A stretch of DNA of 63,567 bases, the filler included, from Stramenopiles sp. TOSAG23-6 (lineage: Eukaryota): the NCBI GenBank assembly GCA_900128565.1. It is 15 parts of 15 records of this genome, joined end to end, with 100 filler letters (N's around TTAATTAATTAA, not from the genome) between each part and the next. Parts side by side here need not be neighbours in the genome. Positions count along the whole stretch, not along the records: positions 1 to 4,163 come from LT637247.1; 14 more parts are not named here. One strand, 5' to 3'. Positions 1 through 34,411 of this stretch are shown piece by piece (position 1 is the stretch's first letter; every line of letters starts with the position of its first letter). The notes under the pieces were generated by a model, which made no database searches, was not told the origin of the DNA, and saw nothing but the letters and a program-made list of their open reading frames with translations. The position numbers and the translations under genes are program-made.

Positions 1-205
1 TTTTCATTGTGAATTTCAAATTTATTTATTTTTTTTTTTTTTTTTTTTAGTTTGAAATTTTGTAATTAACAATTTTCGATTTTAATTTTTTTTTTAGTTC
101 GAAATTTTTTTCCTTAAAAAAAAAAAATTTTTTTTTTTTTTTTTTGGAAAAAAAAATTTCATAACAAACGAATTTCAAATTGTAAGAATATTTTTCATAA
201 GACAT

Positions 206-3200
206 GCTTCACTTTGGGAAAATGATCCAAATTCATTTGTTAGTAAAGCAGAATATTCTGGGGTTGGAGAATATGTTTGTTTTTTTCATTTCAATTTCAA
301 ATTTATTTTTTTTTGTACTACTAAAAATTTTTACTCAAACTTTTTTTTTTTTTTCGGTAAAAAAAAAAAAAAAAATATTTTTAACAATATGTACACTCAG
401 ATCGGTAGGTCCAGATTTTATTCGTTCTGTTCTTAATACAAAATCTCATTTAGGGTGTAGACGAAGAGCATCATCCTGGGGATCTGCTGCTGCTGTACTT
501 GCTATGAAATCTAATATGAAAAAGGTAAGCAGTATTGAAAGTGAAAATGCTAAAATTGAAAGTAGAAAGATTTTTTTATTGGTTTTAGACACGATTGTAT
601 GTTTTATTTTTTTTTTTTAACAAAGAAATCGAATTTTTTTTTATAGTAAATTTTGTACCTAACAAATTTTTTTTAGATTTTTTTCAAATATTTTTCCAAA
701 ATACTTTTTCGTACGAAATTTTGTACCTAACAAATTTAAGTTTTTTTTTTCAAATATTTTTCACAATACATGTACTTTATATCGTGTTCTTTACTATAGA
801 AAATCTCTATGGGCTTATGTAGAAAAAAATGCTATACATAAAATGAGTATAATAGATAAACAACTCAGACCTCTTTCTACTGCATTGGCGCATGTACGTT
901 TTATTTTTTTTTTTGAATTTCTAATTGTTTTTCATACGAAATTTTGTACCTAACGAATTAAAAAAATATATTTTTTCACAATATATGGAACTTTATCAAG
1001 AGTCGGTAGACCTTTTGGTTGTGCTATGTTGCGATTACTTCCAAAAAAGAATTGGAAAGGTTTGCGCCCAATAATGAACCTTTCATCGTGGAACAATACT
1101 GCTTGGCCGAAAGCAATGCGACCCATTTCAAAAAAAAATAAGAAATTACCTTTCTTTTCTTATCGACCACTACCCATCAATAAAGTTTTATTAAAAGTTT
1201 TTGATGTTTTAAAATATGAAAAGAGTAAAAAACCAAAATTGCTCGGTGCTACTGTATTTAGTATTGCTGATATGTACAACCGGTTAAAATCATTTGTAGA
1301 ACTATGGCGAGGATTTCGTGTAGCAGATGAAAAACCTTTTGGTGATGGACAAAATGGAAAGAATAAACCTTTATACTTTGTTGTTGGTGATGTAGCGAAA
1401 TGTTATGATACAATTGTACGTATTTGTCATTTCAATTTCGAACATTTTTTTTTACTATGAAAATTTCGTACCTAACATTTTTTTTTTAAAATATTTTTTT
1501 ACAATACTAAATCAAAAGATTTTATGGAAACTTTTAACAAAAAAGGTTTTGAAAAGTGAAGAATATGTCATTCATAAATATTCAGTCTTGTTCGTTTTCA
1601 AAATTGAATGTTTTACCTAAATTGTTTTTTTCATACGAAATATTGTACCTAACGATTTTTTTTATTTTTTTTTACCGAAAAAAAAAAAATATTTTTTCAC
1701 AATATTTGCGATCTTCAGAATCTAAGAATAAAAATAAAATTGCAAAGTGTAGCAATAAAGATGAAATCGTGACTGATTTCAGACGTTTAGCTCTACCTAG
1801 ATTATCAAGTACACTTCAATTAGCTACTGAAGTCTTTCAAAATCATCCTCTTAAAAGACACAAAATTAACCCTAACCCTATCCCAACTGGAAAAAGACAC
1901 AAAATTAACCCTAACCCTAGGGTTAACCCTACTCGAAAAGATCATACAATATCAACTTTATTAGCAAAATCTACTGAAAAACAAAATGAAAAAATACACA
2001 AAACTGAAAAATGTTTTGATATAAAGCAAAGTAAACAAAAAGGGAAAATATTTGTCGATGGTATTGTATGTTTTCATCATGAATTCCAAATTTATTTTTT
2101 TGTACCAAACTTTGTACCTAACAAATTTCGAATGTAAAATATTTTTCACAATACTTGTACTTTGCATTTGAATTTCATTTTTTNTTTTTTTTTTTTTCAC
2201 CAAAACATATTTCATACTTACAAAAAAACAATGTTTTACATATTTTTGCACAATATTTGTTCATGGATATGTGAAACGAAAAAATATCTTAAAATTAATT
2301 CGTGAACATTTGAGAAGAAATATGTATGTTTTTTTTTTTTTCAATTTTGATTTTTTTTCGTACGAAATTCCGTACCTAACAAATTTTACCAAAAAAAATA
2401 TTTTTACAAAAACATAGTACGATTAGGTACAAAATTCTATCAGCAAATGGTCGGTATTCCTCAAGGTTCTGTACTATCCGCTTTATTATGTGGATTATAT
2501 TATGGGCAAGTGGATGATGCGTTAGTCAATGCTGCAATGCAAAACATGAAAAAATACACGAAATCAAAACATAAATTTGATGAGGACGAAATTATTTCAA
2601 TTGTAAAAGAAACAATGATGAATAGATTAGGTAAAGAAAATGACAGTGACGATGAACTAATGGGTGGAATTTCTTTATCCAATGACAATAAAAATAATGA
2701 AAATAATGAAAATAATGAAAATAATGAAAATAATAGTTTTAATCATAAAAAAAAGAAATTTGGTACGGATTGTAATACAAAAAATAATAATAAAAAAAAA
2801 AGAAAGAGTGAATGTCTTGAACAACATTACACATACAATACTAATACTAATAATACGAATAATACGAATAATACTAATAATACGAATAATACGAATAATG
2901 TTTGTGTGACATCTACAACATCATCTTTTCAAAATTCGTTTAGCAAGAAATTTAGTACGAAATTTGGTACAGGTTCAACTTCAAATTTGCTACATATTGA
3001 TGATGATGATTTATTTGGTGGAATTCCTCAAATGAATTGGATAAAAGATGAAAAGAATAACAATAACGACACGAATTCTGTACTTTTACGTTTAATTGAT
3101 GATTTCTTATTTGTAACGCCTTCATTACAACTTGCAGTAGCTTTTGTTCATAAATTACATGCTGGAGATAGAAAATTAGGATTTCATGTACGTTTTCAGA

Positions 3201-4163
3201 ATTCATTTCAATTTTTTTTTTTTTTTTTTTTTTNGTACAAAATTGTATACTTAACAAAACAAATGAAAATTTGTCATATTATCCTAAAAGTAAAGGTCAA
3301 TTCGAGTAAAACATGCGTAAATTTTGATGTATGTGTAAAAATCACTGACCCTAAAGATAAAACAAAAACAATAAAAAAAAAGATAAAAAATATAGAAAAT
3401 AACACACTTAGTTGGTGTGGTTTAGAAATTAACACAAAAACATTTGAAATAATTACTGATTTTTCAAGGTATCGCATGTTTTCATTGTGAATTTCAAATT
3501 TATTTATTTTTTTTTTTTTTTTTTTAGTATGAAATTTTGTACCTAACAAATTTCGAATTTAATTTTTTTTTTACAATACATGCGATCAATCGCTTCGTTC
3601 TGCGATTCAATATAATTCAGGACTCGGACACAAACCTGGCCAGACGATTATTGATCATCTAAAAAATTTCATTAAACATAAATGTATGTTTTATCTTTTT
3701 TCAATTTCGATTTTTTTTTTTGGAAAGTTTTGTACCTAACAAAGTTTAATTTTCTTTTTTTTGAAATATTTTTCCAAAATACATGTCAAAAATTATTTTT
3801 TGATAGGTGTATCAATAAAATATCAACAATGTTACAACATATATGCAATGTGTTGATTATTGCAGCAATGAGATTTCATCTATTGTATCGAATTTTACAA
3901 CGAAAAAAAATCAAAAGAACAAAACGAAAAAAACGGAAAAAAAAAGGAAATATGAAAAAGGATACTTTTACTAAAAATGAAAAGAAGAATGAAAATTCAA
4001 ATTTCCTTTTTAGCATATTATTGGAAATTAGCAAATACACGCAAATTTTAATCCGAAAACGATTTTCCCCAGCATCATCTTTACAATACCAAAAATCAAA
4101 TCGAAATGAAAATAATGAAACAAATCGAAATGAAAACAATAAAACAAATTCGTTTCCATCGCA
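206..4163 (+). CDS. TERT: Telomerase reverse transcriptase, partial, multi-exon (copy 1). Inferred exons 206-274, 393-596, 772-893, 987-1415, 1510-1589, 1708-2065, 2259-2323, 2416-3187, 3296-3473, 3582-3683, 3785->4163
   Basis: Motifs in order: second half of T (RVLYYRKSLW), 1/2 (LRLLPKK..GLRPIMNL), A (FVVGDVAKCYDTI), B' (YQQMVGIPQGSVLS), C (LLRLIDDFL), D (GFHVNSSKT), E (SWCG), CTE (KCQKLFFD). Exon phases are consistent from 772 onward. Confidence 0.95.
894..986 (+). mobile_element. Introner-like non-canonical intron (GT...AT) in TERT
   Basis: GCGCAT|GTACGTTTT...TTTTGTACCTAAC...TTCACAATATAT|GGAACT; removal joins ALAH to GTLSR in frame with motif 1. Confidence 0.85.
1416..1509 (+). mobile_element. 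Introner-like non-canonical intron (GT...TA) in TERT motif A
   Basis: Removal gives CYDTI|NQKILWKLL, matching the TERT YD.I.Q..L spacing. Confidence 0.75.
1590..1707 (+). mobile_element. Introner-like non-canonical intron (GT...TT) in TERT
   Basis: GTCTT|GTTCGTTTT...GTACCTAAC...CACAATATTT|GCGA; TT on both sides; frame restored. Confidence 0.8.
2066..2258 (+). mobile_element. Two back-to-back introner-like elements (2066-2156 and 2157-2258) with no exon between them
   Basis: ATT|GTATGT...CAATACTT|GTACTT...CAATATTT|GTTCAT; removing both gives IFVDGI|VHGYVKRKNILKLIREHL. Confidence 0.8.
2324..2415 (+). mobile_element. Introner-like non-canonical intron (GT...AT) before TERT motif B'
   Basis: Removal gives EHLRRNIVRLGTKFYQQMVGIPQG; the three AGs between the element and MVGIPQG are all out of frame. 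Confidence 0.9.
3188..3295 (+). other. Family-derived intron with a canonical GT-AG boundary in TERT motif D
   Basis: GGATTTCAT|GTACGT...GTAAAG|GTCAAT gives GDRKLGFHVNSSKTCVNF, colinear with TERT motif D. Confidence 0.75.
3474..3581 (+). mobile_element. Introner-like intron, GC...AT
   Basis: AGGTATC|GCATGTTTTC...TTACAATACAT|GCGAT gives DFSRYRDQSL. Confidence 0.8.
3684..3784 (+). mobile_element. Introner-like intron, GT...AT, in the TERT C-terminal extension
   Basis: AAAT|GTATGT...CCAAAATACAT|GTCAA gives HKCQKLFFD. Confidence 0.85.
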
Positions 4164-4263
4164 NNNNNNNNNNNNNNNNNNNNNNNNNNNNNNNNNNNNN
4201 NNNNNNNTTAATTAATTAANNNNNNNNNNNNNNNNNNNNNNNNNNNNNNNNNNNNNNNNNNNN
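4164..4263. other. Artificial contig linker N-TTAATTAATTAA-N. Others at about 8427, 12690, 16951, 21211, 25468, 29714, 33957, 38199, 42436, 46672, 50905, 55130 and 59352
   Basis: 100-nt N spacer with a six-frame stop cassette, recurring every ~4.2 kb; contig lengths decrease steadily. Confidence 0.98.
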
Positions 4264-4468
4264 TTTTCATTGTGAATTTCAAATTTATTTATTTTTTTTT
4301 TTTTTTTTTTTAGTTTGAAATTTTGTAATTAACAATTTTCGATTTTAATTTTTTTTTTAGTTCGAAATTTTTTTCCTTAAAAAAAAAAAATTTTTTTTTT
4401 TTTTTTTTGGAAAAAAAAATTTCATAACAAACGAATTTCAAATTGTAAGAATATTTTTCATAAGACAT

Positions 4469-7400
4469 GCTTCACTTTGGGAAAATGATCCAAATTCATT
4501 TGTTAGTAAAGCAGAATATTCTGGGGTTGGAGAATATGTTTGTTTTTTTCATTTCAATTTCAAATTTATTTTTTTTTGTACTACTAAAAATTTTTACTCA
4601 AACTTTTTTTTTTTTTTCGGTAAAAAAAAAAAAAAAAATATTTTTAACAATATGTACACTCAGATCGGTAGGTCCAGATTTTATTCGTTCTGTTCTTAAT
4701 ACAAAATCTCATTTAGGGTGTAGACGAAGAGCATCATCCTGGGGATCTGCTGCTGCTGTACTTGCTATGAAATCTAATATGAAAAAGGTAAGCAGTATTG
4801 AAAGTGAAAATGCTAAAATTGAAAGTAGAAAGATTTTTTTATTGGTTTTAGACACGATTGTATGTTTTATTTTTTTTTTTTAACAAAGAAATCGAATTTT
4901 TTTTTATAGTAAATTTTGTACCTAACAAATTTTTTTTAGATTTTTTTCAAATATTTTTCCAAAATACTTTTTCGTACGAAATTTTGTACCTAACAAATTT
5001 AAGTTTTTTTTTTCAAATATTTTTCACAATACATGTACTTTATATCGTGTTCTTTACTATAGAAAATCTCTATGGGCTTATGTAGAAAAAAATGCTATAC
5101 ATAAAATGAGTATAATAGATAAACAACTCAGACCTCTTTCTACTGCATTGGCGCATGTACGTTTTATTTTTTTTTTTGAATTTCTAATTGTTTTTCATAC
5201 GAAATTTTGTACCTAACGAATTAAAAAAATATATTTTTTCACAATATATGGAACTTTATCAAGAGTCGGTAGACCTTTTGGTTGTGCTATGTTGCGATTA
5301 CTTCCAAAAAAGAATTGGAAAGGTTTGCGCCCAATAATGAACCTTTCATCGTGGAACAATACTGCTTGGCCGAAAGCAATGCGACCCATTTCAAAAAAAA
5401 ATAAGAAATTACCTTTCTTTTCTTATCGACCACTACCCATCAATAAAGTTTTATTAAAAGTTTTTGATGTTTTAAAATATGAAAAGAGTAAAAAACCAAA
5501 ATTGCTCGGTGCTACTGTATTTAGTATTGCTGATATGTACAACCGGTTAAAATCATTTGTAGAACTATGGCGAGGATTTCGTGTAGCAGATGAAAAACCT
5601 TTTGGTGATGGACAAAATGGAAAGAATAAACCTTTATACTTTGTTGTTGGTGATGTAGCGAAATGTTATGATACAATTGTACGTATTTGTCATTTCAATT
5701 TCGAACATTTTTTTTTACTATGAAAATTTCGTACCTAACATTTTTTTTTTAAAATATTTTTTTACAATACTAAATCAAAAGATTTTATGGAAACTTTTAA
5801 CAAAAAAGGTTTTGAAAAGTGAAGAATATGTCATTCATAAATATTCAGTCTTGTTCGTTTTCAAAATTGAATGTTTTACCTAAATTGTTTTTTTCATACG
5901 AAATATTGTACCTAACGATTTTTTTTATTTTTTTTTACCGAAAAAAAAAAAATATTTTTTCACAATATTTGCGATCTTCAGAATCTAAGAATAAAAATAA
6001 AATTGCAAAGTGTAGCAATAAAGATGAAATCGTGACTGATTTCAGACGTTTAGCTCTACCTAGATTATCAAGTACACTTCAATTAGCTACTGAAGTCTTT
6101 CAAAATCATCCTCTTAAAAGACACAAAATTAACCCTAACCCTATCCCAACTGGAAAAAGACACAAAATTAACCCTAACCCTAGGGTTAACCCTACTCGAA
6201 AAGATCATACAATATCAACTTTATTAGCAAAATCTACTGAAAAACAAAATGAAAAAATACACAAAACTGAAAAATGTTTTGATATAAAGCAAAGTAAACA
6301 AAAAGGGAAAATATTTGTCGATGGTATTGTATGTTTTCATCATGAATTCCAAATTTATTTTTTTGTACCAAACTTTGTACCTAACAAATTTCGAATGTAA
6401 AATATTTTTCACAATACTTGTACTTTGCATTTGAATTTCATTTTTTCTTTTTTTTTTTTTCACCAAAACATATTTCATACTTACAAAAAAACAATGTTTT
6501 ACATATTTTTGCACAATATTTGTTCATGGATATGTGAAACGAAAAAATATCTTAAAATTAATTCGTGAACATTTGAGAAGAAATATGTATGTTTTTTTTT
6601 TTTTCAATTTTGATTTTTTTTCGTACGAAATTCCGTACCTAACAAATTTTACCAAAAAAAATATTTTTACAAAAACATAGTACGATTAGGTACAAAATTC
6701 TATCAGCAAATGGTCGGTATTCCTCAAGGTTCTGTACTATCCGCTTTATTATGTGGATTATATTATGGGCAAGTGGATGATGCGTTAGTCAATGCTGCAA
6801 TGCAAAACATGAAAAAATACACGAAATCAAAACATAAATTTGATGAGGACGAAATTATTTCAATTGTAAAAGAAACAATGATGAATAGATTAGGTAAAGA
6901 AAATGACAGTGACGATGAACTAATGGGTGGAATTTCTTTATCCAATGACAATAAAAATAATGAAAATAATGAAAATAATGAAAATAATGAAAATAATAGT
7001 TTTAATCATAAAAAAAAGAAATTTGGTACGGATTGTAATACAAAAAATAATAATAAAAAAAAAAGAAAGAGTGAATGTCTTGAACAACATTACACATACA
7101 ATACTAATACTAATAATACGAATAATACGAATAATACTAATAATACGAATAATACGAATAATGTTTGTGTGACATCTACAACATCATCTTTTCAAAATTC
7201 GTTTAGCAAGAAATTTAGTACGAAATTTGGTACAGGTTCAACTTCAAATTTGCTACATATTGATGATGATGATTTATTTGGTGGAATTCCTCAAATGAAT
7301 TGGATAAAAGATGAAAAGAATAACAATAACGACACGAATTCTGTACTTTTACGTTTAATTGATGATTTCTTATTTGTAACGCCTTCATTACAACTTGCAG

Positions 7401-8426
7401 TAGCTTTTGTTCATAAATTACATGCTGGAGATAGAAAATTAGGATTTCATGTACGTTTTCAGAATTCATTTCAATTTTTTTTTTTTTTTTTTTTTTNGTA
7501 CAAAATTGTATACTTAACAAAACAAATGAAAATTTGTCATATTATCCTAAAAGTAAAGGTCAATTCGAGTAAAACATGCGTAAATTTTGATGTATGTGTA
7601 AAAATCACTGACCCTAAAGATAAAACAAAAACAATAAAAAAAAAGATAAAAAATATAGAAAATAACACACTTAGTTGGTGTGGTTTAGAAATTAACACAA
7701 AAACATTTGAAATAATTACTGATTTTTCAAGGTATCGCATGTTTTCATTGTGAATTTCAAATTTATTTATTTTTTTTTTTTTTTTTTTAGTATGAAATTT
7801 TGTACCTAACAAATTTCGAATTTAATTTTTTTTTTACAATACATGCGATCAATCGCTTCGTTCTGCGATTCAATATAATTCAGGACTCGGACACAAACCT
7901 GGCCAGACGATTATTGATCATCTAAAAAATTTCATTAAACATAAATGTATGTTTTATCTTTTTTCAATTTCGATTTTTTTTTTTGGAAAGTTTTGTACCT
8001 AACAAAGTTTAATTTTCTTTTTTTTGAAATATTTTTCCAAAATACATGTCAAAAATTATTTTTTGATAGGTGTATCAATAAAATATCAACAATGTTACAA
8101 CATATATGCAATGTGTTGATTATTGCAGCAATGAGATTTCATCTATTGTATCGAATTTTACAACGAAAAAAAATCAAAAGAACAAAACGAAAAAAACGGA
8201 AAAAAAAAGGAAATATGAAAAAGGATACTTTTACTAAAAATGAAAAGAAGAATGAAAATTCAAATTTCCTTTTTAGCATATTATTGGAAATTAGCAAATA
8301 CACGCAAATTTTAATCCGAAAACGATTTTCCCCAGCATCATCTTTACAATACCAAAAATCAAATCGAAATGAAAATAATGAAACAAATCGAAATGAAAAC
8401 AATAAAACAAATTCGTTTCCATCGCA
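4469..8426 (+). CDS. TERT: TERT, copy 2 (duplicate contig, offset 4263)
   Basis: Same sequence and ORF set as copy 1; the only difference seen is an N in copy 1 resolved as C here. Confidence 0.9.
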
Positions 8427-8731
8427 NNNNNNNNNNNNNNNNNNNNNNNNNNNNNNNNNNNNNNNNNNNNTTAATTAATTAANNNNNNNNNNNNNNNNNN
8501 NNNNNNNNNNNNNNNNNNNNNNNNNNTTTTCATTGTGAATTTCAAATTTATTTATTTTTTTTTTTTTTTTTTTTAGTTTGAAATTTTGTAATTAACAATT
8601 TTCGATTTTAATTTTTTTTTTAGTTCGAAATTTTTTTCCTTAAAAAAAAAAAATTTTTTTTTTTTTTTTTTGGAAAAAAAAATTTCATAACAAACGAATT
8701 TCAAATTGTAAGAATATTTTTCATAAGACAT

Positions 8732-11700
8732 GCTTCACTTTGGGAAAATGATCCAAATTCATTTGTTAGTAAAGCAGAATATTCTGGGGTTGGAGAATAT
8801 GTTTGTTTTTTTCATTTCAATTTCAAATTTATTTTTTTTTGTACTACTAAAAATTTTTACTCAAACTTTTTTTTTTTTTTCGGTAAAAAAAAAAAAAAAA
8901 ATATTTTTAACAATATGTACACTCAGATCGGTAGGTCCAGATTTTATTCGTTCTGTTCTTAATACAAAATCTCATTTAGGGTGTAGACGAAGAGCATCAT
9001 CCTGGGGATCTGCTGCTGCTGTACTTGCTATGAAATCTAATATGAAAAAGGTAAGCAGTATTGAAAGTGAAAATGCTAAAATTGAAAGTAGAAAGATTTT
9101 TTTATTGGTTTTAGACACGATTGTATGTTTTATTTTTTTTTTTTAACAAAGAAATCGAATTTTTTTTTATAGTAAATTTTGTACCTAACAAATTTTTTTT
9201 AGATTTTTTTCAAATATTTTTCCAAAATACTTTTTCGTACGAAATTTTGTACCTAACAAATTTAAGTTTTTTTTTTCAAATATTTTTCACAATACATGTA
9301 CTTTATATCGTGTTCTTTACTATAGAAAATCTCTATGGGCTTATGTAGAAAAAAATGCTATACATAAAATGAGTATAATAGATAAACAACTCAGACCTCT
9401 TTCTACTGCATTGGCGCATGTACGTTTTATTTTTTTTTTTGAATTTCTAATTGTTTTTCATACGAAATTTTGTACCTAACGAATTAAAAAAATATATTTT
9501 TTCACAATATATGGAACTTTATCAAGAGTCGGTAGACCTTTTGGTTGTGCTATGTTGCGATTACTTCCAAAAAAGAATTGGAAAGGTTTGCGCCCAATAA
9601 TGAACCTTTCATCGTGGAACAATACTGCTTGGCCGAAAGCAATGCGACCCATTTCAAAAAAAAATAAGAAATTACCTTTCTTTTCTTATCGACCACTACC
9701 CATCAATAAAGTTTTATTAAAAGTTTTTGATGTTTTAAAATATGAAAAGAGTAAAAAACCAAAATTGCTCGGTGCTACTGTATTTAGTATTGCTGATATG
9801 TACAACCGGTTAAAATCATTTGTAGAACTATGGCGAGGATTTCGTGTAGCAGATGAAAAACCTTTTGGTGATGGACAAAATGGAAAGAATAAACCTTTAT
9901 ACTTTGTTGTTGGTGATGTAGCGAAATGTTATGATACAATTGTACGTATTTGTCATTTCAATTTCGAACATTTTTTTTTACTATGAAAATTTCGTACCTA
10001 ACATTTTTTTTTTAAAATATTTTTTTACAATACTAAATCAAAAGATTTTATGGAAACTTTTAACAAAAAAGGTTTTGAAAAGTGAAGAATATGTCATTCA
10101 TAAATATTCAGTCTTGTTCGTTTTCAAAATTGAATGTTTTACCTAAATTGTTTTTTTCATACGAAATATTGTACCTAACGATTTTTTTTATTTTTTTTTA
10201 CCGAAAAAAAAAAAATATTTTTTCACAATATTTGCGATCTTCAGAATCTAAGAATAAAAATAAAATTGCAAAGTGTAGCAATAAAGATGAAATCGTGACT
10301 GATTTCAGACGTTTAGCTCTACCTAGATTATCAAGTACACTTCAATTAGCTACTGAAGTCTTTCAAAATCATCCTCTTAAAAGACACAAAATTAACCCTA
10401 ACCCTATCCCAACTGGAAAAAGACACAAAATTAACCCTAACCCTAGGGTTAACCCTACTCGAAAAGATCATACAATATCAACTTTATTAGCAAAATCTAC
10501 TGAAAAACAAAATGAAAAAATACACAAAACTGAAAAATGTTTTGATATAAAGCAAAGTAAACAAAAAGGGAAAATATTTGTCGATGGTATTGTATGTTTT
10601 CATCATGAATTCCAAATTTATTTTTTTGTACCAAACTTTGTACCTAACAAATTTCGAATGTAAAATATTTTTCACAATACTTGTACTTTGCATTTGAATT
10701 TCATTTTTTCTTTTTTTTTTTTTCACCAAAACATATTTCATACTTACAAAAAAACAATGTTTTACATATTTTTGCACAATATTTGTTCATGGATATGTGA
10801 AACGAAAAAATATCTTAAAATTAATTCGTGAACATTTGAGAAGAAATATGTATGTTTTTTTTTTTTTCAATTTTGATTTTTTTTCGTACGAAATTCCGTA
10901 CCTAACAAATTTTACCAAAAAAAATATTTTTACAAAAACATAGTACGATTAGGTACAAAATTCTATCAGCAAATGGTCGGTATTCCTCAAGGTTCTGTAC
11001 TATCCGCTTTATTATGTGGATTATATTATGGGCAAGTGGATGATGCGTTAGTCAATGCTGCAATGCAAAACATGAAAAAATACACGAAATCAAAACATAA
11101 ATTTGATGAGGACGAAATTATTTCAATTGTAAAAGAAACAATGATGAATAGATTAGGTAAAGAAAATGACAGTGACGATGAACTAATGGGTGGAATTTCT
11201 TTATCCAATGACAATAAAAATAATGAAAATAATGAAAATAATGAAAATAATGAAAATAATAGTTTTAATCATAAAAAAAAGAAATTTGGTACGGATTGTA
11301 ATACAAAAAATAATAATAAAAAAAAAAGAAAGAGTGAATGTCTTGAACAACATTACACATACAATACTAATACTAATAATACGAATAATACGAATAATAC
11401 TAATAATACGAATAATACGAATAATGTTTGTGTGACATCTACAACATCATCTTTTCAAAATTCGTTTAGCAAGAAATTTAGTACGAAATTTGGTACAGGT
11501 TCAACTTCAAATTTGCTACATATTGATGATGATGATTTATTTGGTGGAATTCCTCAAATGAATTGGATAAAAGATGAAAAGAATAACAATAACGACACGA
11601 ATTCTGTACTTTTACGTTTAATTGATGATTTCTTATTTGTAACGCCTTCATTACAACTTGCAGTAGCTTTTGTTCATAAATTACATGCTGGAGATAGAAA

Positions 11701-12689
11701 ATTAGGATTTCATGTACGTTTTCAGAATTCATTTCAATTTTTTTTTTTTTTTTTTTTTTNGTACAAAATTGTATACTTAACAAAACAAATGAAAATTTGT
11801 CATATTATCCTAAAAGTAAAGGTCAATTCGAGTAAAACATGCGTAAATTTTGATGTATGTGTAAAAATCACTGACCCTAAAGATAAAACAAAAACAATAA
11901 AAAAAAAGATAAAAAATATAGAAAATAACACACTTAGTTGGTGTGGTTTAGAAATTAACACAAAAACATTTGAAATAATTACTGATTTTTCAAGGTATCG
12001 CATGTTTTCATTGTGAATTTCAAATTTATTTATTTTTTTTTTTTTTTTTTTAGTATGAAATTTTGTACCTAACAAATTTCGAATTTAATTTTTTTTTTAC
12101 AATACATGCGATCAATCGCTTCGTTCTGCGATTCAATATAATTCAGGACTCGGACACAAACCTGGCCAGACGATTATTGATCATCTAAAAAATTTCATTA
12201 AACATAAATGTATGTTTTATCTTTTTTCAATTTCGATTTTTTTTTTTGGAAAGTTTTGTACCTAACAAAGTTTAATTTTCTTTTTTTTGAAATATTTTTC
12301 CAAAATACATGTCAAAAATTATTTTTTGATAGGTGTATCAATAAAATATCAACAATGTTACAACATATATGCAATGTGTTGATTATTGCAGCAATGAGAT
12401 TTCATCTATTGTATCGAATTTTACAACGAAAAAAAATCAAAAGAACAAAACGAAAAAAACGGAAAAAAAAAGGAAATATGAAAAAGGATACTTTTACTAA
12501 AAATGAAAAGAAGAATGAAAATTCAAATTTCCTTTTTAGCATATTATTGGAAATTAGCAAATACACGCAAATTTTAATCCGAAAACGATTTTCCCCAGCA
12601 TCATCTTTACAATACCAAAAATCAAATCGAAATGAAAATAATGAAACAAATCGAAATGAAAACAATAAAACAAATTCGTTTCCATCGCA
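8732..12689 (+). CDS. TERT: TERT, copy 3 (duplicate contig, offset 8526)
   Basis: Same sequence and ORF set as copies 1 and 2. Confidence 0.9.
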
Positions 12690-19437: not shown

Positions 19438-20787
19438 ATGATAATAATGATTTACATTTCTTANTTTACACTTTTTTTTGTGACATCAACAAATGGTGCG
19501 ATGATACAATACTGGCCTGGGCCGGCCCGACCACAGCATCCATATTATCCTCTTAGCATAACGACGGAAAGACCACAAACGACCGCCGCCATCGGCAAGC
19601 CGGCGGAACCNGTCAGACTGAGGCAAGATTCAAGACTAAGAGAGCCCCGAAGAGAGCACACAGCAGCAGAGTATGAACGTGTCACAACACAAGCAACACA
19701 AACAACACAAACAACACGAGCAAACGAAAAAAGCACAACACTAACTGCAGCAACTGTAGTAACGACAACAGACTTAGCAACCAAAGCAACAAAACTTCCA
19801 AGACTTGCAGTTGTATTTGATTTAGATGAAACCTTAATTCATTCTCACTTAGTTGATCTTAATCAAAGTGCAGAGGATATTGATTTAATTGTTACAAAGT
19901 GTGATGAGGATAATGATTGTTTCAAACTTCTTTATATGTCTAGAGGTGGCGAAGAAACATTTACCGTTCGTAAACAACGTGGTATACCTAAATTAGAAGA
20001 GTTTGTGGCTCATGATGAAATATATTTGGTCCAAAAACGACCCGGTCTTGATGCATTTTTGGCAACTGTATCAAAAAAGTATGATCTTTGTATGTTTTTT
20101 ACGGTTNTTTACGGTTTTTCATCATTCATTTTCTTGAAAATTTATTCATTTTGTTTTCGTAGGTAATTTTGTACCTAACATTTCTTTTTGTTTTTTGATA
20201 TTTTGTATACTGTTTACATTTTTACTGCTGGAACAAAAGGCTATGCTGATGCAGTTATAAATGAAATAGATACAAACTCNTATTTTCCAAANGAAAGTCG
20301 TTATTACCGANACCATTGCCAGACTTTAACATTTTCTTCTGCAGACGGTCAAGAATTTGTAGCATANGGAAAAGACTTGCTAGTGATGAAAGGAAACCTT
20401 AAAAACCCTAACCCTAACCCTCTTTTTCCTTTTTCTCGAATTGTGTTAGTTGATAATAAAGAAATTTCGTTTTTTGCTCGACCTGGAAATGGAATACTTA
20501 TCAAAGATTTCATTGATGATAAAAATGATTTTGAACTAATGATTTTGATAGACGCTTTAAATGATATTGATAATTGTGACAATGTTGAACATCGTGCAAA
20601 CAATTTATTTCAGATGAAAAGACAAGAAAAACACGAAAAACACGAAAACCACGAAAACCACGAAAAACGAAAAGATAAAAAGAGAAAAGAGGAAGCGAAA
20701 ATGACTTTGAGACAAGAACAAGAATCGAAAAAAAAAGCGCGGGCTGCGAACATACTTGAGATGATGTTGGAACCATTGGACGTGTGA
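19438..20787 (+). CDS. FCP1/SCP (NIF) family HAD phosphatase with a putative signal peptide; one intron at about 20090-20213
   Basis: VVFDLDETLIHS, KRPGLDAFL, IFTAG..YADAVI, KDL, IVLVDN...PGNGILIKDF. Confidence 0.9.
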
Positions 20788-21364
20788 GATCAGTGACGGT
20801 GCAAAGCAGCTGCTGCAGCAGTGCGCGCTGCTTGCGTCACAAATAATTTTTTTGAATGTTTCCAAGGATTTTTTAAATTTTTTTTGGAATTTTTTTGAGT
20901 TTTTAATTTTTTCTTTGACCAATAAATTATAACTAGCCTACAGTACCTAATAAATGTCCTTATAGCCAATTCTTCAAGTATCAGAAACACGTGTCAGCAA
21001 ATTGGCACGAAATCGGAAATCATATGAACAGAAAAATCAAATTCAAAATTCAAAATTACTCCTATACCCCGGTCAAAATCAAAATTTAATGCGGTCAAAA
21101 TTTTTAAAAATCGGAGAGAGTCAAAGAAAATTATCGATTCGTACATCCAAATAAATATTAATAAGAAGATGTCTTTGAAACAGAATGGTATCTCGTTTCT
21201 CTTCATTTTGNNNNNNNNNNNNNNNNNNNNNNNNNNNNNNNNNNNNNNNNNNNNTTAATTAATTAANNNNNNNNNNNNNNNNNNNNNNNNNNNNNNNNNN
21301 NNNNNNNNNNACAAAATTTCGTACGAAAAATAAATTCGAAATTGAAAAAAAAATAAAACATATA

Positions 21365-21914
21365 TGGTAGTTCTCTGTTTTTTTGAAGAATATTCTTTCT
21401 CAGAGAGGGGAGGTTCAAACATTTCATCAAATGTTTCATCAAAACTTTCATTAAACGTTTCACTAAATAATCTCGAAGTAGCATTATTTGTATTTTTATC
21501 AAATATAGATGAAAGTTTTGCCCAAACTAAAACACAATACATTTTCACATTTTCCAGAACATCATGAATAGATCCACTTTTTGGAATAAAATAAAATAAA
21601 ACAGCCGATGTCCATGATGACAACAGTTCCATAATTGTATATACAGTACTATCTCCTTTACACACATTCTCACAAACAAATGTACATAAACCACAATATC
21701 TCCCATCACAGAAAGGAGGTCGACGTCTGTTGGCTAATGGGTTATCCAAAGTGCATGCGTCACTATTACATATACGGCAGCTGTCGCAATATCTCGTACA
21801 TGGACCCATCACAGATGAATTTGCTATCTTTTCTACCCCCATAACGCCAAATAAATGGGTATGTAGAATAATCAACAATGTGATTTTCGGTTTCATCGCC
21901 CCGCTGCCGTTCAT
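21365..21914 (-). CDS. Hypothetical Cys-rich membrane or secreted protein, partial
   Basis: Open frame with a hydrophobic N-terminus and a Cys cluster; ends at a family intron. Confidence 0.55.
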
Positions 21915-22215
21915 TATCTAAATCATTCAAAATTTTAAAGAAGAAAAGAATAGAAAAAAAGAGATCTTGTCGTCGGTTTCGCTTTATTTTTTTTTTGAAT
22001 TTTCTCCCGAGGATCGCGATTAAATTTTCAAGCAGATTTGATTTCGTGCGTCTTGTTGACGTCACTGCTGCTGGTCAATTTCAGGTAGCTGTCATAAATT
22101 AATTAAATTAATAGTGTCATCATCTGGATTCTGGAGTAGAGTATCTTCATACTATCGTAAAATATTACATCTTTGGCTTTGTAGTCTTACTATAAGGTTT
22201 GCATAATTCCAGTCT

Positions 22216-23127
22216 ATGCATAGGTTTTTGCGTATAGGAACAACACAGAAACGTATTTTTCAATTTGCATTAGCCACAGGCACAGTAGCAGCAGTCACCG
22301 AGTGCCCCCCCAACAAATCACTATATAAGTCATCTTCGTATAATATGTCTCCAATGGTAGCCCACTGCCTTAGTTTTTCAACATCTTTACCATCAAAATT
22401 GAAGAAGTGTGACCAAAAGCAGTTAGAACCCGGGAGTCATTCACGTACTGAATTATTTGAAGAGTTAGAGCAGCTATCACACGAAAACAAAACAGTTTCT
22501 GTTTTATGGCGTCTATGTCGTGCGTGCTTTGATATCTCAGAAGAAATCCCAGCAAAGGGTACGCAAGAAGAAAGGAACGAAAAGGAACGCCTCGTGCGGA
22601 AGGCTCTAGACCTCGCGCGAGAGGCTGTCACCGAAGCTAACAAAGGAGAAGCCGGGTCAGATTCTCGAGATTGTTCAGCAGCGCACAAGTGGTTTGGTAT
22701 CTGTCTTTCCTCCCTGGGTGACTACTTGGGCACAAAAGAAAAGATCAAAAATTCGTTTACGATACAGGAAAGCTTCAAAAAAGCTTCGGAATTAAATCCT
22801 TCGGATCCAAATTGTTTTCATTTATTAGGTCGATGGGCTTTCAGTGTAGCCTCAATAAGTTGGGTTGAACGTCAAGCCGCCTCTTTTATTTTTGCGACTC
22901 CTCCAACCTCGGACTATTCTAAAGCACTTAAATTATTCGAAAAAGCCGAAGAAATGCAACCTGGATTTTGGAAAACGAATATGCTTATGTTAGCAAAGTG
23001 TAAATATCAGCTGGGAGATAGACAAAGTGCAAAACAATGGGCTGAAGCTGCGTTAAAATTGCCAATACGAACTCCAGAAGATCGTGACAGTCAAGAGCAA
23101 GTGAAGGAATTACTCTCTAAGTTATAG
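22216..23127 (+). CDS. RMDN1: Regulator of microtubule dynamics (RMDN1-like) TPR protein
   Basis: VLWRLCRACFD, AHKWFGI, KEKIKNSFTI, HLLGRWAFSVA.ISWVERQAAS.IFATPP; intronless. Confidence 0.9.
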   Translation: MHRFLRIGTTQKRIFQFALATGTVAAVTECPPNKSLYKSSSYNMSPMVAHCLSFSTSLPSKLKKCDQKQLEPGSHSRTELFEELEQLSHENKTVSVLWRLCRACFDISEEIPAKGTQEERNEKERLVRKALDLAREAVTEANKGEAGSDSRDCSAAHKWFGICLSSLGDYLGTKEKIKNSFTIQESFKKASELNPSDPNCFHLLGRWAFSVASISWVERQAASFIFATPPTSDYSKALKLFEKAEEMQPGFWKTNMLMLAKCKYQLGDRQSAKQWAEAALKLPIRTPEDRDSQEQVKELLSKL

Positions 23128-23357
23128 AAGATTCTGACAGTCAAGAACAAGTGAAGGAATTACTCTCTAAGTTATGATGCTACACATTTACAGTACCTGA
23201 ACGACGACGTTTACAATACAATTCAAAATAAACGAATACTAATAACTTTTTGTTGCATTTTGTATTTTGATTAAAAAGAAAATTCTTCTTGAAACATACT
23301 AATGATATATATCGTAATATTATGGAAATTATTTTACATAACCTCAATAAACAATTT

Positions 23358-24329
23358 TTAGCATGAATTTCCACCACTGGGAATTGGAAGCAAACCAACA
23401 GAATGTCGGGCAAGATTAATAGTGTTGACAAGAAGCATTGCGATAGTCATTGGTCCAATACCTCCAGGAACTGGTGTAATAGCTGAACAAACCATTTTGG
23501 CTTCATCGTAACACACATCCCCAACTAATCTATATCCTCGCTTTTTTGTTTTATCCTCTTTCTCGTTTATACCAACATCCAATACAACAGCACCTTTTTT
23601 AAGCCAAGAACCTCGAATAATTTCTGGTTTTCCAATTGCAGCAACAACAATGTCAGCTCTACGAATTTTATCCGAAAGGTCAACTGTGCGGGAATGGCAA
23701 ACTGTCACAGTAGCATTCATAGCTTGTAACATTGCAGCAACTGGCATTCCCACAATATTAGACCGTCCAACAACAACAGCATCTTTTCCAGAGACCTCTA
23801 TCTTATATCTTCGTAAAAGCTCCACGCAACCTGCTGGTGTGCAAGGCGATGCCAGTGGGGCATCTCCACCGCGTAAGCAGAGATTTCCAATATTGAGAGC
23901 AGAAAATCCATCAACATCCTTTTCAATTTTAATTGTTTTCAAAACACGAGCTTCGTCAATTTGTTTTGGTAGAGGCAACTGTACAAGGATACCGTGTACT
24001 TTGGGATCTTCATTTAGTTTTTTTACCTCTTGAATAAGGGTAGCTTCAGCGACATCCTCGGGCAATTTAATATCATAGTTATTGAAACCCACTTCCTCAG
24101 CCGCCTTCTTTTTCATTCTGACATACACGGCTGAATCTGTACGCGAACCTACAAGAACAACAGCTAAGCCTGGGGTAACTTGATGCGAAGATTTCAAGGA
24201 CGAAACATGGACTATGAGTTCTGAACGAATAGTTTTAGCTGTGGCACGACCATCGATTTTAATGGCCACCGCTTCCGTGGATAATACTGCATCCGTTTCA
24301 ATAGTCATTGCATATACGAATTTGCTCAA
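23358..24329 (-). CDS. folD: Bifunctional methylenetetrahydrofolate dehydrogenase/cyclohydrolase
   Basis: YVRMKKKA, HGILVQLPLP, KDVDGF, PCTPAG, GRSNIVGMP, ITPVPGGIGPMT; true ATG probably at about 24308. Confidence 0.96.
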   Translation of the reverse strand: MSKFVYAMTIETDAVLSTEAVAIKIDGRATAKTIRSELIVHVSSLKSSHQVTPGLAVVLVGSRTDSAVYVRMKKKAAEEVGFNNYDIKLPEDVAEATLIQEVKKLNEDPKVHGILVQLPLPKQIDEARVLKTIKIEKDVDGFSALNIGNLCLRGGDAPLASPCTPAGCVELLRRYKIEVSGKDAVVVGRSNIVGMPVAAMLQAMNATVTVCHSRTVDLSDKIRRADIVVAAIGKPEIIRGSWLKKGAVVLDVGINEKEDKTKKRGYRLVGDVCYDEAKMVCSAITPVPGGIGPMTIAMLLVNTINLARHSVGLLPIPSGGNSC

Positions 24330-24573
24330 GTTTAAGTGGATTCAATGCAAGAGAGTTGTGTTTCTTTTCCAACAAAAGAACTAAATTAATCTTTTCTTTG
24401 GGGAATGTTCTGATTCTGAATGTCTCATCAAAAATAAACCCCAACCCTAAGCTATTTTTTTTGACATTTGAACTCGAGAGTTGGCCCATTTAAATTCTGA
24501 ACGAGGTGGTCATGTGAACTGTGTGAAGGATACCCTTTGAGTGATCTAGGTAGATCAAAGCGCATGCATTAAA

Positions 24574-25467
24574 ATGATGAAGTTTATACTATGTACAATG
24601 TTACTCTTATCTTCATATGTATGTCATATTGAAGCAGCTACTCGGACGACTCAATCTCCAGAACCAGAACCAGAACCATATTTGGAAGGAATTGCTTTAA
24701 GCAACTCAACAGACGTGCTAATCGAAATTTCCGAAATACCTGAACTAGCATCTAAAATAATCGGTCATCTCTCTTTCTCTGACATGGCAAATCTTTTCTA
24801 CACAAATAAAAGCATGCGAAACATGTTGATAATCGATGGTATTTCAAAAGTCAGGAACATTGAGACCACATTTCGACAAGAAATAAGAGAAATGATCAAC
24901 CCCCGCAACGTTGTATTAAACTGGCTAAACTATGTAGACATAATTCACAGAATGGTTTTTCAGAATTATAAACTCTCCGAAGATACAACGGTAAGACTTA
25001 GACGAAGGGTTGAAGGCGAAAGCCATGATCAATTTTTAAGCCGTACAAAAAGTGTGTTGGAAAGAGAAGCTTTGATTGCATTGTATAATAATACAAATGG
25101 AGATCGTTGGAAGCGTAAAGATAATTGGAACACAGATACGAATATTTCTATGTGGCATGGAGTCACGTGTACTGAAGGAGGAAATGTTACTGAATTAAGG
25201 TTGGAATCCAACAATCTATCTGGTTCAATTCCAAGTGAAATTGGTCAACTATCAAATCTCGTACTTTTGGACTTTCAAAAAAACAAACTATCTGGTTCAA
25301 TTCCAAAGGAAATTGGTCAACTAATAAATCTCGAACACTTGTACTTGGATGACAACGAACTCTCTGGCTCAATACCAAAAGAAATTGGTCAAATAACAAA
25401 GCTCGAATATTTGTACTTGGGAAACAACAAACTATCTGGTTCAATTCCAAAGGAAATTGGTCAACTA
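24574..25467 (+). CDS. Leucine-rich repeat protein with signal peptide and a possible F-box-like segment, partial
   Basis: EREALIALY..TNG..W cap and 24-aa repeats LSGSIPKEIGQL..L..L.L..N. Confidence 0.9.
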
Positions 25468-25672
25468 NNNNNNNNNNNNNNNNNNNNNNNNNNNNNNNNN
25501 NNNNNNNNNNNTTAATTAATTAANNNNNNNNNNNNNNNNNNNNNNNNNNNNNNNNNNNNNNNNNNNNTTTATTTTTTTTTTTACAAATAAATCGAATTTT
25601 GTTTCCGTTCGAAATTTTTTTCCTAACAATTTTTTTTTTTTTTTTTTTTTGAAATATTTTTCCAAAATACAT

Positions 25673-26236
25673 GTTTGCGTGAACCTGCTCCACCATCACT
25701 TGAACAATTCGATTTGGATGAAAACTTCGCCAGTGACCGTTTACGTCTCGCACAACTCACTAATAAATGTTTGGGACCGGGTACCACCGAATCTGACTTG
25801 GAGTATTACATTAAAGAATGTGGAGAGATTCTAGGCGTTACTGCAAAGCTTCAGCACATATGTTTTCAATATTGAATTTTTTTTTTTTTTTTTTTTTTTT
25901 TAATACGAAATTTCATACCTAACAAAAAAAAATCAAAAAAAAAAATATTTCTTCACAATACATGATCGGCAAGAAGCGAAGCATATATTAGAATATGTTG
26001 TTCGTCAATTAATCAATTTTAAAAAACTTAATCAAAATGAAAATGAGGAAAAGTTGCCAGATTATCATAATATGGCAGGTCATGGGAAAGCAGGCATAGG
26101 AGACCATCGTAATAAACTTGAAAAATTATCAAGTCAAGGAAACATAAATGGAAAAAAATTACCAAATATAAGTTCTAAACTCGGCAAATTGGAAGGTAAA
26201 ATTAGTGTGGATGGTGGAAAAAAACTTTTAAAGTAG
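25673..26236 (+). CDS. 3' end of a hypothetical protein (exons 25673-25857 and 25964-26236)
   Basis: Frames join across the element 25858-25963. Confidence 0.6.
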
Positions 26237-26534
26237 AGAGTAGAAATTTTTTTTTAAAAAGTAGATTAAAAAAAAAAAAAGTCGTTTTTCATTTATTTCT
26301 TTTTCTTTTTTTTTCTTCAAAATTTAAACAGTTGAATTCTTTTTTTATAAGATCTTGATATTGCTTGAATGAGAACCAATGTATACTGATTAAGTAATCC
26401 TATACGATTATACTTTATTATCATCAACACGTATTTTTTTACGCATGAATAAAAGGGTACGGAATCTCACAATGCGTTGCAATCTTTCTCGATCTCACAA
26501 CTCGTTGCAATCTTTCTCAATCGAAATCTTCAAC

Positions 26535-26945
26535 TCAATCAAAATTTTCACCTGGCTCATATAGTTGACTATTTGTTCCATAACACATTACCCTACTTGA
26601 TTCTAATGGTAACACCTCCATTCTAGTGTAAGAATTATATTTTGAGTTACAGCACTTCCAGAAATCTACGTAGTTCCAAAGTTTAAAAGTACAAAATAAA
26701 GTGAACATCAAATACACTACAGATGCTCCGAAAAAATCTCGCGCTGAATGCGGATTTTGTATTCCAATCATAAGTTTCGGCTGAGAAAATGAAAGGTAAC
26801 TAAATATTAAAAGTATTGTAGTTGCTAGTAATGAAAATACCCAACAAAAAACAAGAGAAACACTAGATGCTTGTCTCTTTGTCCCAGCGTCATGTTGGGT
26901 AGCTGGCCAACTATTCTCCGATATAAAAGAAACACTTTGCATCAT
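26535..26945 (-). CDS. Small two-TM membrane protein, weakly RNASEK/V-ATPase subunit f-like
   Basis: C.VFS...ILL and A...FGA..VY hydrophobic pattern; family call is weak. Confidence 0.4.
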   Translation of the reverse strand: MMQSVSFISENSWPATQHDAGTKRQASSVSLVFCWVFSLLATTILLIFSYLSFSQPKLMIGIQNPHSARDFFGASVVYLMFTLFCTFKLWNYVDFWKCCNSKYNSYTRMEVLPLESSRVMCYGTNSQLYEPGENFD

Positions 26946-27267
26946 CCGCTATATTGATCAAGAATCATAGTGAATCTTTGTAAATGAGAAGGAACGATAT
27001 GCAAACTAATGCATATGAAGTATAGGATTTTCAGAGAATATTTGTATTGTTTTCATTGTGTTTCAACTTTACTTCACACAAGTGAGTGAAGTGATGTTTC
27101 AATTATTAAAAAAAAAAAAAAGGCCAAACGGCAAATTTGCTTTTTCAAAAATAGCAAAAATTTCAAATTTGACTATTGTTCCGCACGAAAAAATAATAAA
27201 ATAATAAAATAATTATTTTTTATTATAATAATTATTATAAGACGTCCCAAAAAAGCAAATTATTATT

Positions 27268-27343
27268 ATAATATTAGGGTTAGGGCTAATTTTATAAAAA
27301 TTATCATAATATTAGGGTTAGGGCTAATTTTATAAAAAATTAT
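27268..27343. repeat. Two-copy ~38-nt direct repeat containing TTAGGGTTAGGG, between divergent ORFs
   Basis: ATAATATTAGGGTTAGGGCTAATTTTATAAAAAATTAT occurs twice. Confidence 0.85.
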
Positions 27344-28155
27344 TCGGAACAAACCTGTAAAAAATATGAAAAAATATTATTTTATTCACAATAATAGTTA
27401 TTATAATCAATAATAATTATTATTATTTTTCGTTTCTAAAAAATAATAAAATAGCGGATCAATAAATTTGACAGCAGCTGATGTTGACATAGTAGTAAAT
27501 AATATTTTACTATACTAAAGCTAGGGTAGTCCTCACGTACTACTATTCAAAGTAACTCTGTATTGTATTGCTTATTACTTGAGAAAAACAAGTTATAAAT
27601 AGTATCGTTTTAGTTTGCAATCTTTTTGAGCATGCCACAGAAATGTTTGCATAGAATTAAAGATATAGTTGTTACCATATACTGTCTGCTTATATTTATA
27701 TGCAACTCCAAATTGTTTGTGATTGCAGCACAAGTACATCCTATAGACAGTGAAAAAAATAGGACTGTAAAAACACAAGAGCTCGTTGAAATACAGAGAC
27801 ATATACCAGAGAAGCAATTTATAACAGTGAATGCAAATGATACTAAAGACCGTTATACCAAGCAAACAAAAAATGGAACCAAAGAGGGCAAAGAGAAGCA
27901 ACTTCGTCAAGTTGATCCATATATTTTCGAAGAGGAATCCTTTTGGGTGGTAGCCGAAGCTTGGTGGAACAATACCCAGGCCAATCTTTAGTTATCACCT
28001 GACATTAAATATCCAATTCACGTGTCTCTACAAGCTCTACAATGAAAAAAAAACAAAAAGTCTACTATTTAGATAAAATGCCAAATTGTTGTAAAAGTTT
28101 TATGATTCAAATTTAAAATTATATTTTTTTCTTTGTATTACGTTTGCATTATGCA

Positions 28156-29712: not shown

Positions 29713-29903
29713 ANNNNNNNNNNNNNNNNNNNNNNNNNNNNNNNNNNNNNNNNNNNNTTAATTAATTAANNNNNNNNNNNNNNNNNNNNNNNNNNNNNNN
29801 NNNNNNNNNNNNNCAAAAAAAATCTAAAAATATTTGTTAGGTACGAAATTTCGTACGAAAAAAAAAAATCGATTTTTTTGTAAAAAAAAAAAATAAAACT
29901 TAC

Positions 29904-33956: not shown

Positions 33957-34411
33957 NNNNNNNNNNNNNNNNNNNNNNNNNNNNNNNNNNNNNNNNNNNN
34001 TTAATTAATTAANNNNNNNNNNNNNNNNNNNNNNNNNNNNNNNNNNNNNNNNNNNNACAATAAACGTGGACGGAGAAGAAGTCTCTCTCATTGGGATCGT
34101 GAAAACTTCAACTCAATGGTAAGTCCGAACCCAAATAACCCAAATTTGCGTGGATTTGTAACCTATGGAAATCGTTTCACGTCACCAAATCCATTGGCAT
34201 CAACTTCACCTACAGTTGTTCCACCTTCCTCAGGAAAAATAAATTCTTTATCAAATGGATTTCGTTCTCTCAGAAGAAGAGCATCCTGTTCAGCATTACC
34301 AAGACCTAGCAAAAGCCATCAACGTGCTCTTAATCTTTCAAAGGAGACATCTTCGAATGAGACTAGAGGTAATGATGGACTTCCGAAGACGATATCAGAC
34401 AAGATACTCCA

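Follow-up and report, generated by a model that had tools for sequence, protein, structure and literature searches.

Positions 206-4163 of a 63,567-nucleotide stretch of DNA from Stramenopiles sp. TOSAG23-6 (GenBank assembly GCA_900128565.1), referred to here as the window, code for the T motif, the reverse transcriptase (RT) motifs 1 to E, and the C-terminal extension of the telomerase reverse transcriptase TERT. Nearly all introns of this gene are copies of one repeat family, with the 5' end GTAYGTTTT, an internal TTGTACCTAAC box, the 3' end ...AATAC, and a direct repeat of 2 nt at either flank. Excision of each element together with one copy of the repeat would restore the open reading frame (ORF): under this rule, the TERT model shows 919 codons with 0 stops and is collinear with 25 homologues. 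By their sequence, the elements can be described as a putative family of introners that resemble miniature inverted-repeat transposable elements (MITEs) and have a non-AG 3' site. On balance, the region as a whole is best explained by a functional TERT gene, from an AT-rich protist of marine origin, that would have been invaded by this single family.

The window contains 15 contigs of ∼4.1 kb each, joined via N-TTAATTAATTAA-N linkers. Contigs 1 to 3 (1-12689) are one TERT contig in triplicate, identical except for one N and thus not independent of each other, and contig 15 (59452-63567) is wholly contained in contig 13 (51005-55129). The 4263-nt repeats in the window are therefore an artefact of assembly or concatenation. 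TERT coordinates refer to the first copy of the contig; further copies lie at +4263 and +8526.

The TERT gene

The identity of the gene is indicated by comparisons with proteins of known structure and with sequence homologues. The ORF 10877-12013, the counterpart of 2351-3487 in another copy of the contig, matches human TERT chains in the PDB over motifs B', C, and E (E value, 5.5e-11), and exon 987-1415 matches the motif A region of TERT chains (E value, 0.002). A HMMER search with exon 2417-3187 against 1.84 billion representatives gives 454 matches at an E value of ≤0.001, none of them closer than 4e-12. The spliced TERT model was aligned by MAFFT with 25 TERT homologues of 850 to 1350 residues found among the 150 matches listed of these 454. 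The T motif and motifs 1, 2, A, B', C, D, and E all align with the homologues, and the catalytic aspartates are present, one in motif A and an Asp-Asp pair in motif C. A preliminary description of this DNA had reported that motifs 1, 2, A, B', C, D, and E are intact and that the catalytic core is split by family elements. The alignment confirms the former statement, and the latter agrees with the presence of a family element at the boundary of each motif-bearing exon. Pfam searches with single TERT exons give nothing above the threshold, and the TERT_C match of the last exon (3785-4163) is weak, with an E value of 0.076.

Starting within an intron, the contig ends without reaching a stop, with ∼90 residues upstream of the T motif. 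It carries 10 short introns besides the one truncated by the contig start. The parts of the gene are as follows, all on the plus strand.

1..205 (+): family intron, 3' part only, cut by the contig start; ends in ..AAGAC+AT, with the exon frame opening at 206
206..274 (+): TERT exon, part of the RNA-binding domain, fitting the frame of the 919-codon model
275..392 (+): intron i0, family element of 118 nt, GT..GT, flanks AT/GT
393..596 (+): TERT exon, ending with the first half of the T motif, from the homologue alignment
597..770 (+): intron i1, composite of 174 nt, with a full element at 597-704, TT, and then a copy of the 3' two-thirds
771..893 (+): TERT exon, second half of the T motif, from the homologue alignment
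894..986 (+): intron i2, family element, GT..AT, flanks AT/AT
987..1415 (+): TERT exon, motifs 1, 2, and A, from the match to TERT chains and the alignment
1416..1509 (+): intron i3, family element, GT..TA, flanks TT/TA; gap-free junction right after motif A
1510..1589 (+): TERT exon, from the 919-codon model and the alignment
1590..1707 (+): intron i4, family element, GT..TT, flanks TT/TT
1708..2065 (+): TERT exon, insertion-in-fingers region, holding a duplicated stretch; in the 919-codon model
2066..2258 (+): intron i5, head-to-tail pair of elements (2066-2156, 2157-2258), TT at the outer sides and at the joint; gap-free junction
2259..2323 (+): TERT exon, from the homologue alignment
2324..2415 (+): intron i6, family element, GT..AT, flanks AT/AT
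2416..3187 (+): TERT exon, motifs B' and C with an Asn-rich insert between them, from the match to human TERT and the alignment
3188..3295 (+): intron i7, 108 nt, family 5' half with degenerate branch box and 3' end; best read as GT..AG, which leaves no gap compared to homologues
3296..3473 (+): TERT exon, motifs D and E, from the match to human TERT and the alignment
3474..3581 (+): intron i8, family element with a GC donor, GC..AT, flanks TC/AT; register-informative junction
3582..3683 (+): TERT exon, start of the C-terminal extension, from the homologue alignment
3684..3784 (+): intron i9, family element, GT..AT, flanks AT/AT
3785..4163 (+): TERT exon, C-terminal extension, with the frame open as far as the contig runs; in the 919-codon model

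The Asn-rich insert between motifs B' and C is of low complexity and made of 9-nt repeats (2660-2910). The duplicated coding stretch contains telomere-like runs similar to CCCTAA, at 1867-1930 (+). In i5, the second element begins exactly at the end of the first; this intron may be removed stepwise with a zero-length exon or in one piece.

The element family

The elements are 90 to 120 nt long. An alignment of 27 copies gives the consensus AT GTAYGTTTT, a variable T-rich spacer, (TTCGTACGAA) ATTTTGTACCTAAC, a second variable spacer, and GAAATATTTTT[C/A]CA[A/C]AATAC AT G. The 5' logo reads (A/T)T|GTAYGTTTT, with G1 present in 33/33 elements. The TTGTACCTAAC box is identical in 27/27 aligned copies, while the spacers vary, and it is located 32 to 55 nt from the 3' end of the element (median, 36 nt), followed by a T-rich tract. 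At ≤1 mismatch, this box occurs 76 times in the window compared to 1.03 expected occurrences; the count includes the triplicated TERT contig, and ∼54 of the matches lie on nonredundant contigs. The last 9 nt of the element are AAAATACAT-like, and the GTAT..ATAC ends form a short terminal inverted repeat (TIR). The elements thus contain the features of a U2-type intron at the 5' site (GT or GC with an extended consensus), branch box, and pyrimidine tract.

Many similar copies are found in different genes of this genome, as is characteristic of introners, and DNA runs contain parts of the element at very high depth. All elements are oriented in sense to the host gene, with 9/9 in TERT, 8/8 on contig 4, 12/12 on contig 10, and 8/8 on contig 14.

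Several further observations concern the element sequence. Internal palindromes are found with TTCGTACGAA directly before the box and with AAATTCGAATTT in many copies; these might be protein-binding or hairpin sites. An antisense copy of the box with one mismatch lies at 2422-2432 (-) within the motif B' exon and is probably due to chance. Telomere-like TTAGGG/CCCTAA sequences occur as three units within a family intron of contig 14 (∼56705-56741, minus strand), and degenerate runs of this kind adjoin elements on contig 8 (∼32440-32540).

Reading frame across the elements

Element ends were located by short motifs, a weight matrix, and coordinates. From position 8527 on, the box has 56 matches, 28 of which were kept as clean elements. 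The other 28 were dropped: 12 at contig ends or Ns, 8 tandem or composite copies, 7 with ends misplaced by the automatic finder, and 1 antisense chance match. Removal of the element, from the G of GTAYGT to the C of ..ATAC, plus 2 nt (modulo 3) joins the longest flanking ORFs in 24/28 clean elements, compared to one third by chance (binomial p, 1.6e-8). The remaining 4/28 show two nearly equal frames, of which the second longest fits the same rule.

The addition of 5 TERT elements by coordinate gives a set of 33. The flanking dinucleotides are identical in 22 of these (permutation p, 1.6e-4), so that the excised unit behaves like a transposon together with a single copy of a 2-bp target duplication. 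A 3' TT flank is always accompanied by a 5' TT flank (4/4 elements; Fisher p, 0.0017), and one element is flanked by AC on both sides. The 3' dinucleotide is AT in 25/33 elements and TT, AC, AA, TA, or GT in the other 8. The frequency of AT at this position, compared to 18/33 at the 5' flank, suits a selected intronic AT.

The TERT gene follows the rule of element plus 2 nt in 8/10 introns (i0, i2, i3, i4, i5, i6, i8, and i9), and 7/10 junctions are gap-free compared to the 25 homologues. At 3683/3785, the split codon T|GT encodes a Cys that most homologues share, and AT|A at 2323/2416 occupies a site upstream of motif B' where Ile/Val/Leu is conserved. Since the exon limits are set by the elements and not by stops, the absence of TAA, TAG, and TGA from all 919 codons shows that none of the three is a sense codon. 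The preliminary description had already argued this for TAA, with reference to the TAA ends of MCCC2 and other ORFs; no MCCC2 gene was found in the window.

Position of the intron boundaries

Identical flanks conceal the exact position of a cut, and 22/33 elements yield the same mRNA whether the boundaries are set as above, 1 nt to the left, or 2 nt to the left. The intron could accordingly consist of the repeat copy followed by the element, in an AT...AC reading (2 nt left), or begin 1 nt to the left. The junction of i8 is informative in this respect. Here, the readings GC..AT, CA..TG, and AT..GC of 3474-3581 all yield the same mRNA, encoding Tyr-Arg-Asp with the junction codon CGC. Moving the boundaries 1 nt to the left gives TGC, and moving them 2 nt to the left (TC..AC) gives TAA, in accordance with the stop described earlier for an NN..AC reading. 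When the family register is ignored, other stop-free pairs can be found, e.g., GT at 3469 with ..AC at 3579, a pair that deletes a Tyr/Phe found in nearly all homologues.

The register was further examined by sliding both boundaries across all 33 elements and counting stops at the junctions.

No shift: 0 junction stops
1 nt left: mRNA altered in 7 elements, 0 stops
2 nt left: mRNA altered in 11 elements, 1 stop (TERT junction 3473/3582)
3 nt left: mRNA altered in 31 elements, 0 stops
1 nt right: mRNA altered in 15 elements, 1 stop
2 nt right: mRNA altered in 24 elements, 3 stops
3 nt right: mRNA altered in 31 elements, 4 stops

This test is a weak one, yet it disfavours the NN..AC reading and rightward shifts. 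A 1-nt shift, which the preliminary description had left standing, is compatible with the sequence, with 0 stops in the 7 elements where the mRNA is altered. At the 6 junctions with a changed residue, the shift of 1 nt to the left always gives Cys, Tyr, or Met, compared to Arg, Asp, Val, Asn, Ser, and Ser in the unshifted register; as a heuristic, this pattern favours the unshifted register. In AT-AC introns, a first A and a last C are known to be compatible. The AT...AC register, however, places AT at the first two positions in only 18/33 elements and leads to the TAA in TERT and the loss of a Tyr/Phe conserved in homologues. In either of the leftward registers, the conserved GTAYG would lie off the cut, and both are considered unlikely. 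The register of element plus 2 nt appears exact to within 1 nt. The canonical 5' site reported for diplonemids is GTATG, as in these elements (PMC12621601). This agreement favours GY at the 5' end, and so does the higher frequency of AT at the 3' dinucleotide than at the 5' flank.

AG is not the 3' signal of the family. In 12/31 elements, the level expected by chance, the AG nearest downstream of the box is in frame, and an unused AG lies between the box and the 3' end in 9/31. No TERT intron other than i7 (3188-3295) ends in AG. Before motif B', the only AGs within or just past the i6 element begin at 2416 and 2425, and neither is in frame with the GT at 2324, as had been noted earlier for the AGs of 2324-2415. 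A reading with ordinary GT/GC-AG introns and cryptic sites close to the elements is thus hard to reconcile with the gene. Stop-free in-frame pairs exist for 8/10 TERT introns, and GT-AG is the best reading of i7. For i6, however, such pairs need cryptic donors at 2302 or 2328 and remove residues aligned with homologues; the pairs for i3, i6, and i9 delete or insert residues where the family rule is gap-free. No pair exists for i5, and the only one for i8 removes 13 residues. This explanation is regarded as scarcely credible.

The preliminary description had preferred GY donors with AT-type acceptors to an AT-AC interpretation. The frame rule (24/28) and the stop caused by the 2-nt shift to the left speak for this preference. 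The acceptor, by contrast, is defined by position: an "AT-type acceptor" is the site two nucleotides past the end of the inverted repeat, occupied by AT in 25/33 elements, and the generalization does not extend to i7, with its GT-AG reading, or to i1, which is off by 1 nt.

Proposed removal of the elements

A mechanism is proposed for the family. The element and one repeat copy would leave the pre-mRNA, whereby the original coding sequence would be restored. The 5' cut would be placed before the G of GTAYG and the 3' cut 2 nt past the end of the inverted repeat, so that most introns would be of the GT...AT type, with a GC donor at 3474. A U2-type spliceosome would carry out the removal with the help of the element's own 5' site, branch-like box, and T-rich tract, and the 3' site would be picked by position and not by AG. 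Removal by the spliceosome is probable because the elements occur in sense only and show an invariant 5' site, a yeast-like branch box, and a T-rich tract. The box resembles the yeast UACUAAC branch consensus.

A more specific form of this mechanism is put forward tentatively. Here, the family would be carried by an abundant lineage of marine protists and supply a perfect U2-type 5' site and branch box and no AG, and the 3' cut would be measured from the inverted repeat, either by an AG-free spliceosome or by a hybrid with structure-guided cleavage. If this is true, the excised RNA would keep a 2-nt 3' overhang, and a spliceosome would exist that works without AG recognition, or else a combination of spliceosomal recognition with structure-guided cleavage.

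Several observations weigh against spliceosomal removal of an introner family under the rule of element plus 2 nt. Intron i1 (597-770) has 174 nt, 1 fewer than the 175 of the rule, and is gap-free compared to homologues only at 174. Intron i7 (3188-3295) fits GT-AG, and the rule of plus 2 nt, applied at 3282, gives stops. In the gene of an NIF phosphatase, the family intron at 20090-20215 (+), flanked by TTT on both sides, needs the element plus 5 nt (126 nt, as determined from the Pfam profile positions of the two halves of the NIF domain). The terminal helix is weak; it is found in 8/12 minimum-energy folds, with a z score below -2 in 2/12. The conserved blocks of the element could serve transposition instead of splicing. 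No classical spliceosomal precedent is known for a non-AG intron with G as the first and T as the last base. The assembly itself is redundant and made up of short, N-containing contigs. No cDNA was found, and RNA-run contigs on the TERT contig match repeats and one piece of an exon, none of them bridging a junction.

The same boundaries could also be cut independently of the spliceosome, as in nonconventional introns of the euglenozoan type, in which the inverted repeat would pair the intron ends, followed by cleavage by a structure-specific nuclease and ligation. This explanation is possible, though it is held to be improbable. The intron ends pair in 8/12 folds, and the junctions are of the pyrimidine|purine type, with T|G at 26/33 5' junctions and, at the 3' junctions, T in 30/33 followed by G or A in 27/33. 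Euglenid introns likewise combine pyrimidine|purine junctions with repeats resembling target-site duplications (TSDs) (PMC11282704). Pairing of G1 with the last C would leave a 2-nt 3' overhang, which suits the idea of an RNase III and a ligase outlined for hemistasiid introns (PMC12621601). On the other hand, the Euglena signature N3-CDG ... CH'G-N5-6|R (PMC12501133) is absent, and positions +4 to +6 are YGT. The helices are no more stable than those of shuffled sequence in 10/12 folds. A mechanism based on palindromic ends should allow both orientations, but the elements are all in sense. The invariant 5' GTAYG, the branch-like box, and the T-rich tract are, in contrast, what a spliceosome requires.

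A further explanation involves no removal of RNA. The gene would then be a pseudogene riddled with MITEs, or the elements would be excised from DNA like the internal eliminated sequences (IESs) of ciliates, with 2-bp repeats at the boundaries. TIRs and a 2-bp repeat of which one copy is retained do resemble TA-bounded IESs, and the assembly is a draft. The TERT motifs and catalytic residues are intact, however, with 919 codons open, and the frame rule holds in unrelated genes. Orientation in sense only is unexpected for DNA excision or neutral insertion, and DNA runs, including seawater metagenomes, carry the element-bearing form. Both variants are regarded as very improbable; removal of the elements at the RNA level is inferred from reading frames and homology.

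Comparison with known intron types

Transposon-derived and noncanonical introns have already been published, those of marine diplonemids among them, and this family adds to a known kind. Introners of Micromonas, dinoflagellates, and others show many intragenic copies, short TIRs, a duplication similar to a target site, and sense orientation; as is proposed here, the element and one repeat copy leave the mRNA and the ORF is restored (PMC11282704). In contrast to these introners, the present elements have a non-AG 3' end and bring their own 5' site and branch-like box. The repeat is 2 nt long, compared to 3 nt in Micromonas (PMC11282704). The likeness to introners is seen in sequence features, namely, the copies, the TIR, and the duplication.

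Gawryluk et al., in 2016, inferred noncanonical introns in single-cell genomes of marine diplonemids, as cited in later work (PMC12621601, PMC6221363, PMC6792441). According to these citations, that case shares with the present one a marine, AT-rich, euglenozoan or euglenozoan-like source and many non-GT-AG introns predicted without transcripts. The nonconventional introns of euglenids and hemistasiids are similar in their non-AG ends, TSD-like repeats, pyrimidine|purine junctions, and presumed MITE origin and perhaps in end pairing (PMC12501133, PMC12621601, PMC11282704). Unlike these introns, the present family shows a perfect 5' GTAYG, a strong branch-like box, and a T tract and lacks a CAG/CTG pair at +4..+6 and -8..-6. 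The intron ends of hemistasiids are described as G/C-rich and varied, unlike those found here (PMC12621601). The route by which euglenozoan noncanonical introns are removed is still presented as open (PMC12621601, PMC11282704). If the specific mechanism described above holds, the near-identical copies of this family would be a ready substrate for working it out.

The introns of Fritillaria borealis (AG-AC and AG-AT) are also derived from transposons, with TIRs and a TSD, and end in AC or AT at the 3' side (PMC11282704). Their cleavage is ascribed to a U2 spliceosome that has become adapted to them (PMC11282704). Their 5' end is AG and thus not GT (PMC11282704), in contrast to the canonical 5' end of the present elements, where the 3' end alone deviates; the two lineages are unrelated.

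Similarities to the U12-type AT-AC introns are the possible AT...AC reading and the branch box, which ends in CTAAC. This sequence is somewhat like the U12 branch consensus, and the branch site of U12 introns is located roughly 10 to 26 nt from the 3' end. Unlike in U12 introns, the 5' GTAYGTTTT is not of the U12 type, the box lies 32 to 55 nt from the 3' end, and the AT-AC register gives a stop in TERT.

The family is unusually regular: its 5' site and internal box are fixed, and its 3' end is set by position. The rule of plus 2 nt makes the genes of such single-cell assemblies readable, turning ten ORF fragments into a TERT of 919 codons.

RNA, metagenome, and homologue searches

On the TERT contig, contigs from RNA and DNA runs match mostly the repeats; one RNA-run contig of 174 nt lies inside exon 2416-3187. 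In two seawater metatranscriptome runs, contigs match family elements in 8527-12689 at high summed depth; these matches could be unspliced RNA, excised introns, or DNA carry-over. A metagenome scan with a 16-nt stretch of the box gives at least 118 loci; among the matches listed, none shows the 5' and 3' motifs of the family, and the loci are therefore seen as chance matches. Spliced relatives of TERT exon 2417-3187 are not found among its HMMER matches, nor are those of a PI3K exon in two homologue searches. The register could not be read from PI3K homology, as the class I PI3K alignment ends at junction 13282 and the frame downstream is ambiguous. A search of 8527-63567 against Rfam gives no match and hence no small nuclear RNA to compare for complementarity to GTAYGT or the TACCTAAC box. 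The window contains no transposase.

Source organism and remaining contigs

The run listing for this source is marine. The source is probably a euglenozoan and perhaps a diplonemid, to which the evidence points weakly. The MTHFD gene of contig 6, which is free of family introns, finds its best PDB matches in 4a26 and 4cjx, both trypanosomatid enzymes, and this counts in favour of nonconventional introns of the euglenozoan type. Contigs 6, 7, and 9 (21311-29713 and 34057-38198) may hold genes of this organism that are poor in introns, or they may come from a different organism. They show a higher G+C content (0.31 to 0.38), carry no family element, and contain long unbroken ORFs, comprising MTHFD, RMD1-3, the C terminus of IFT52, and a leucine-rich repeat (LRR) sequence.

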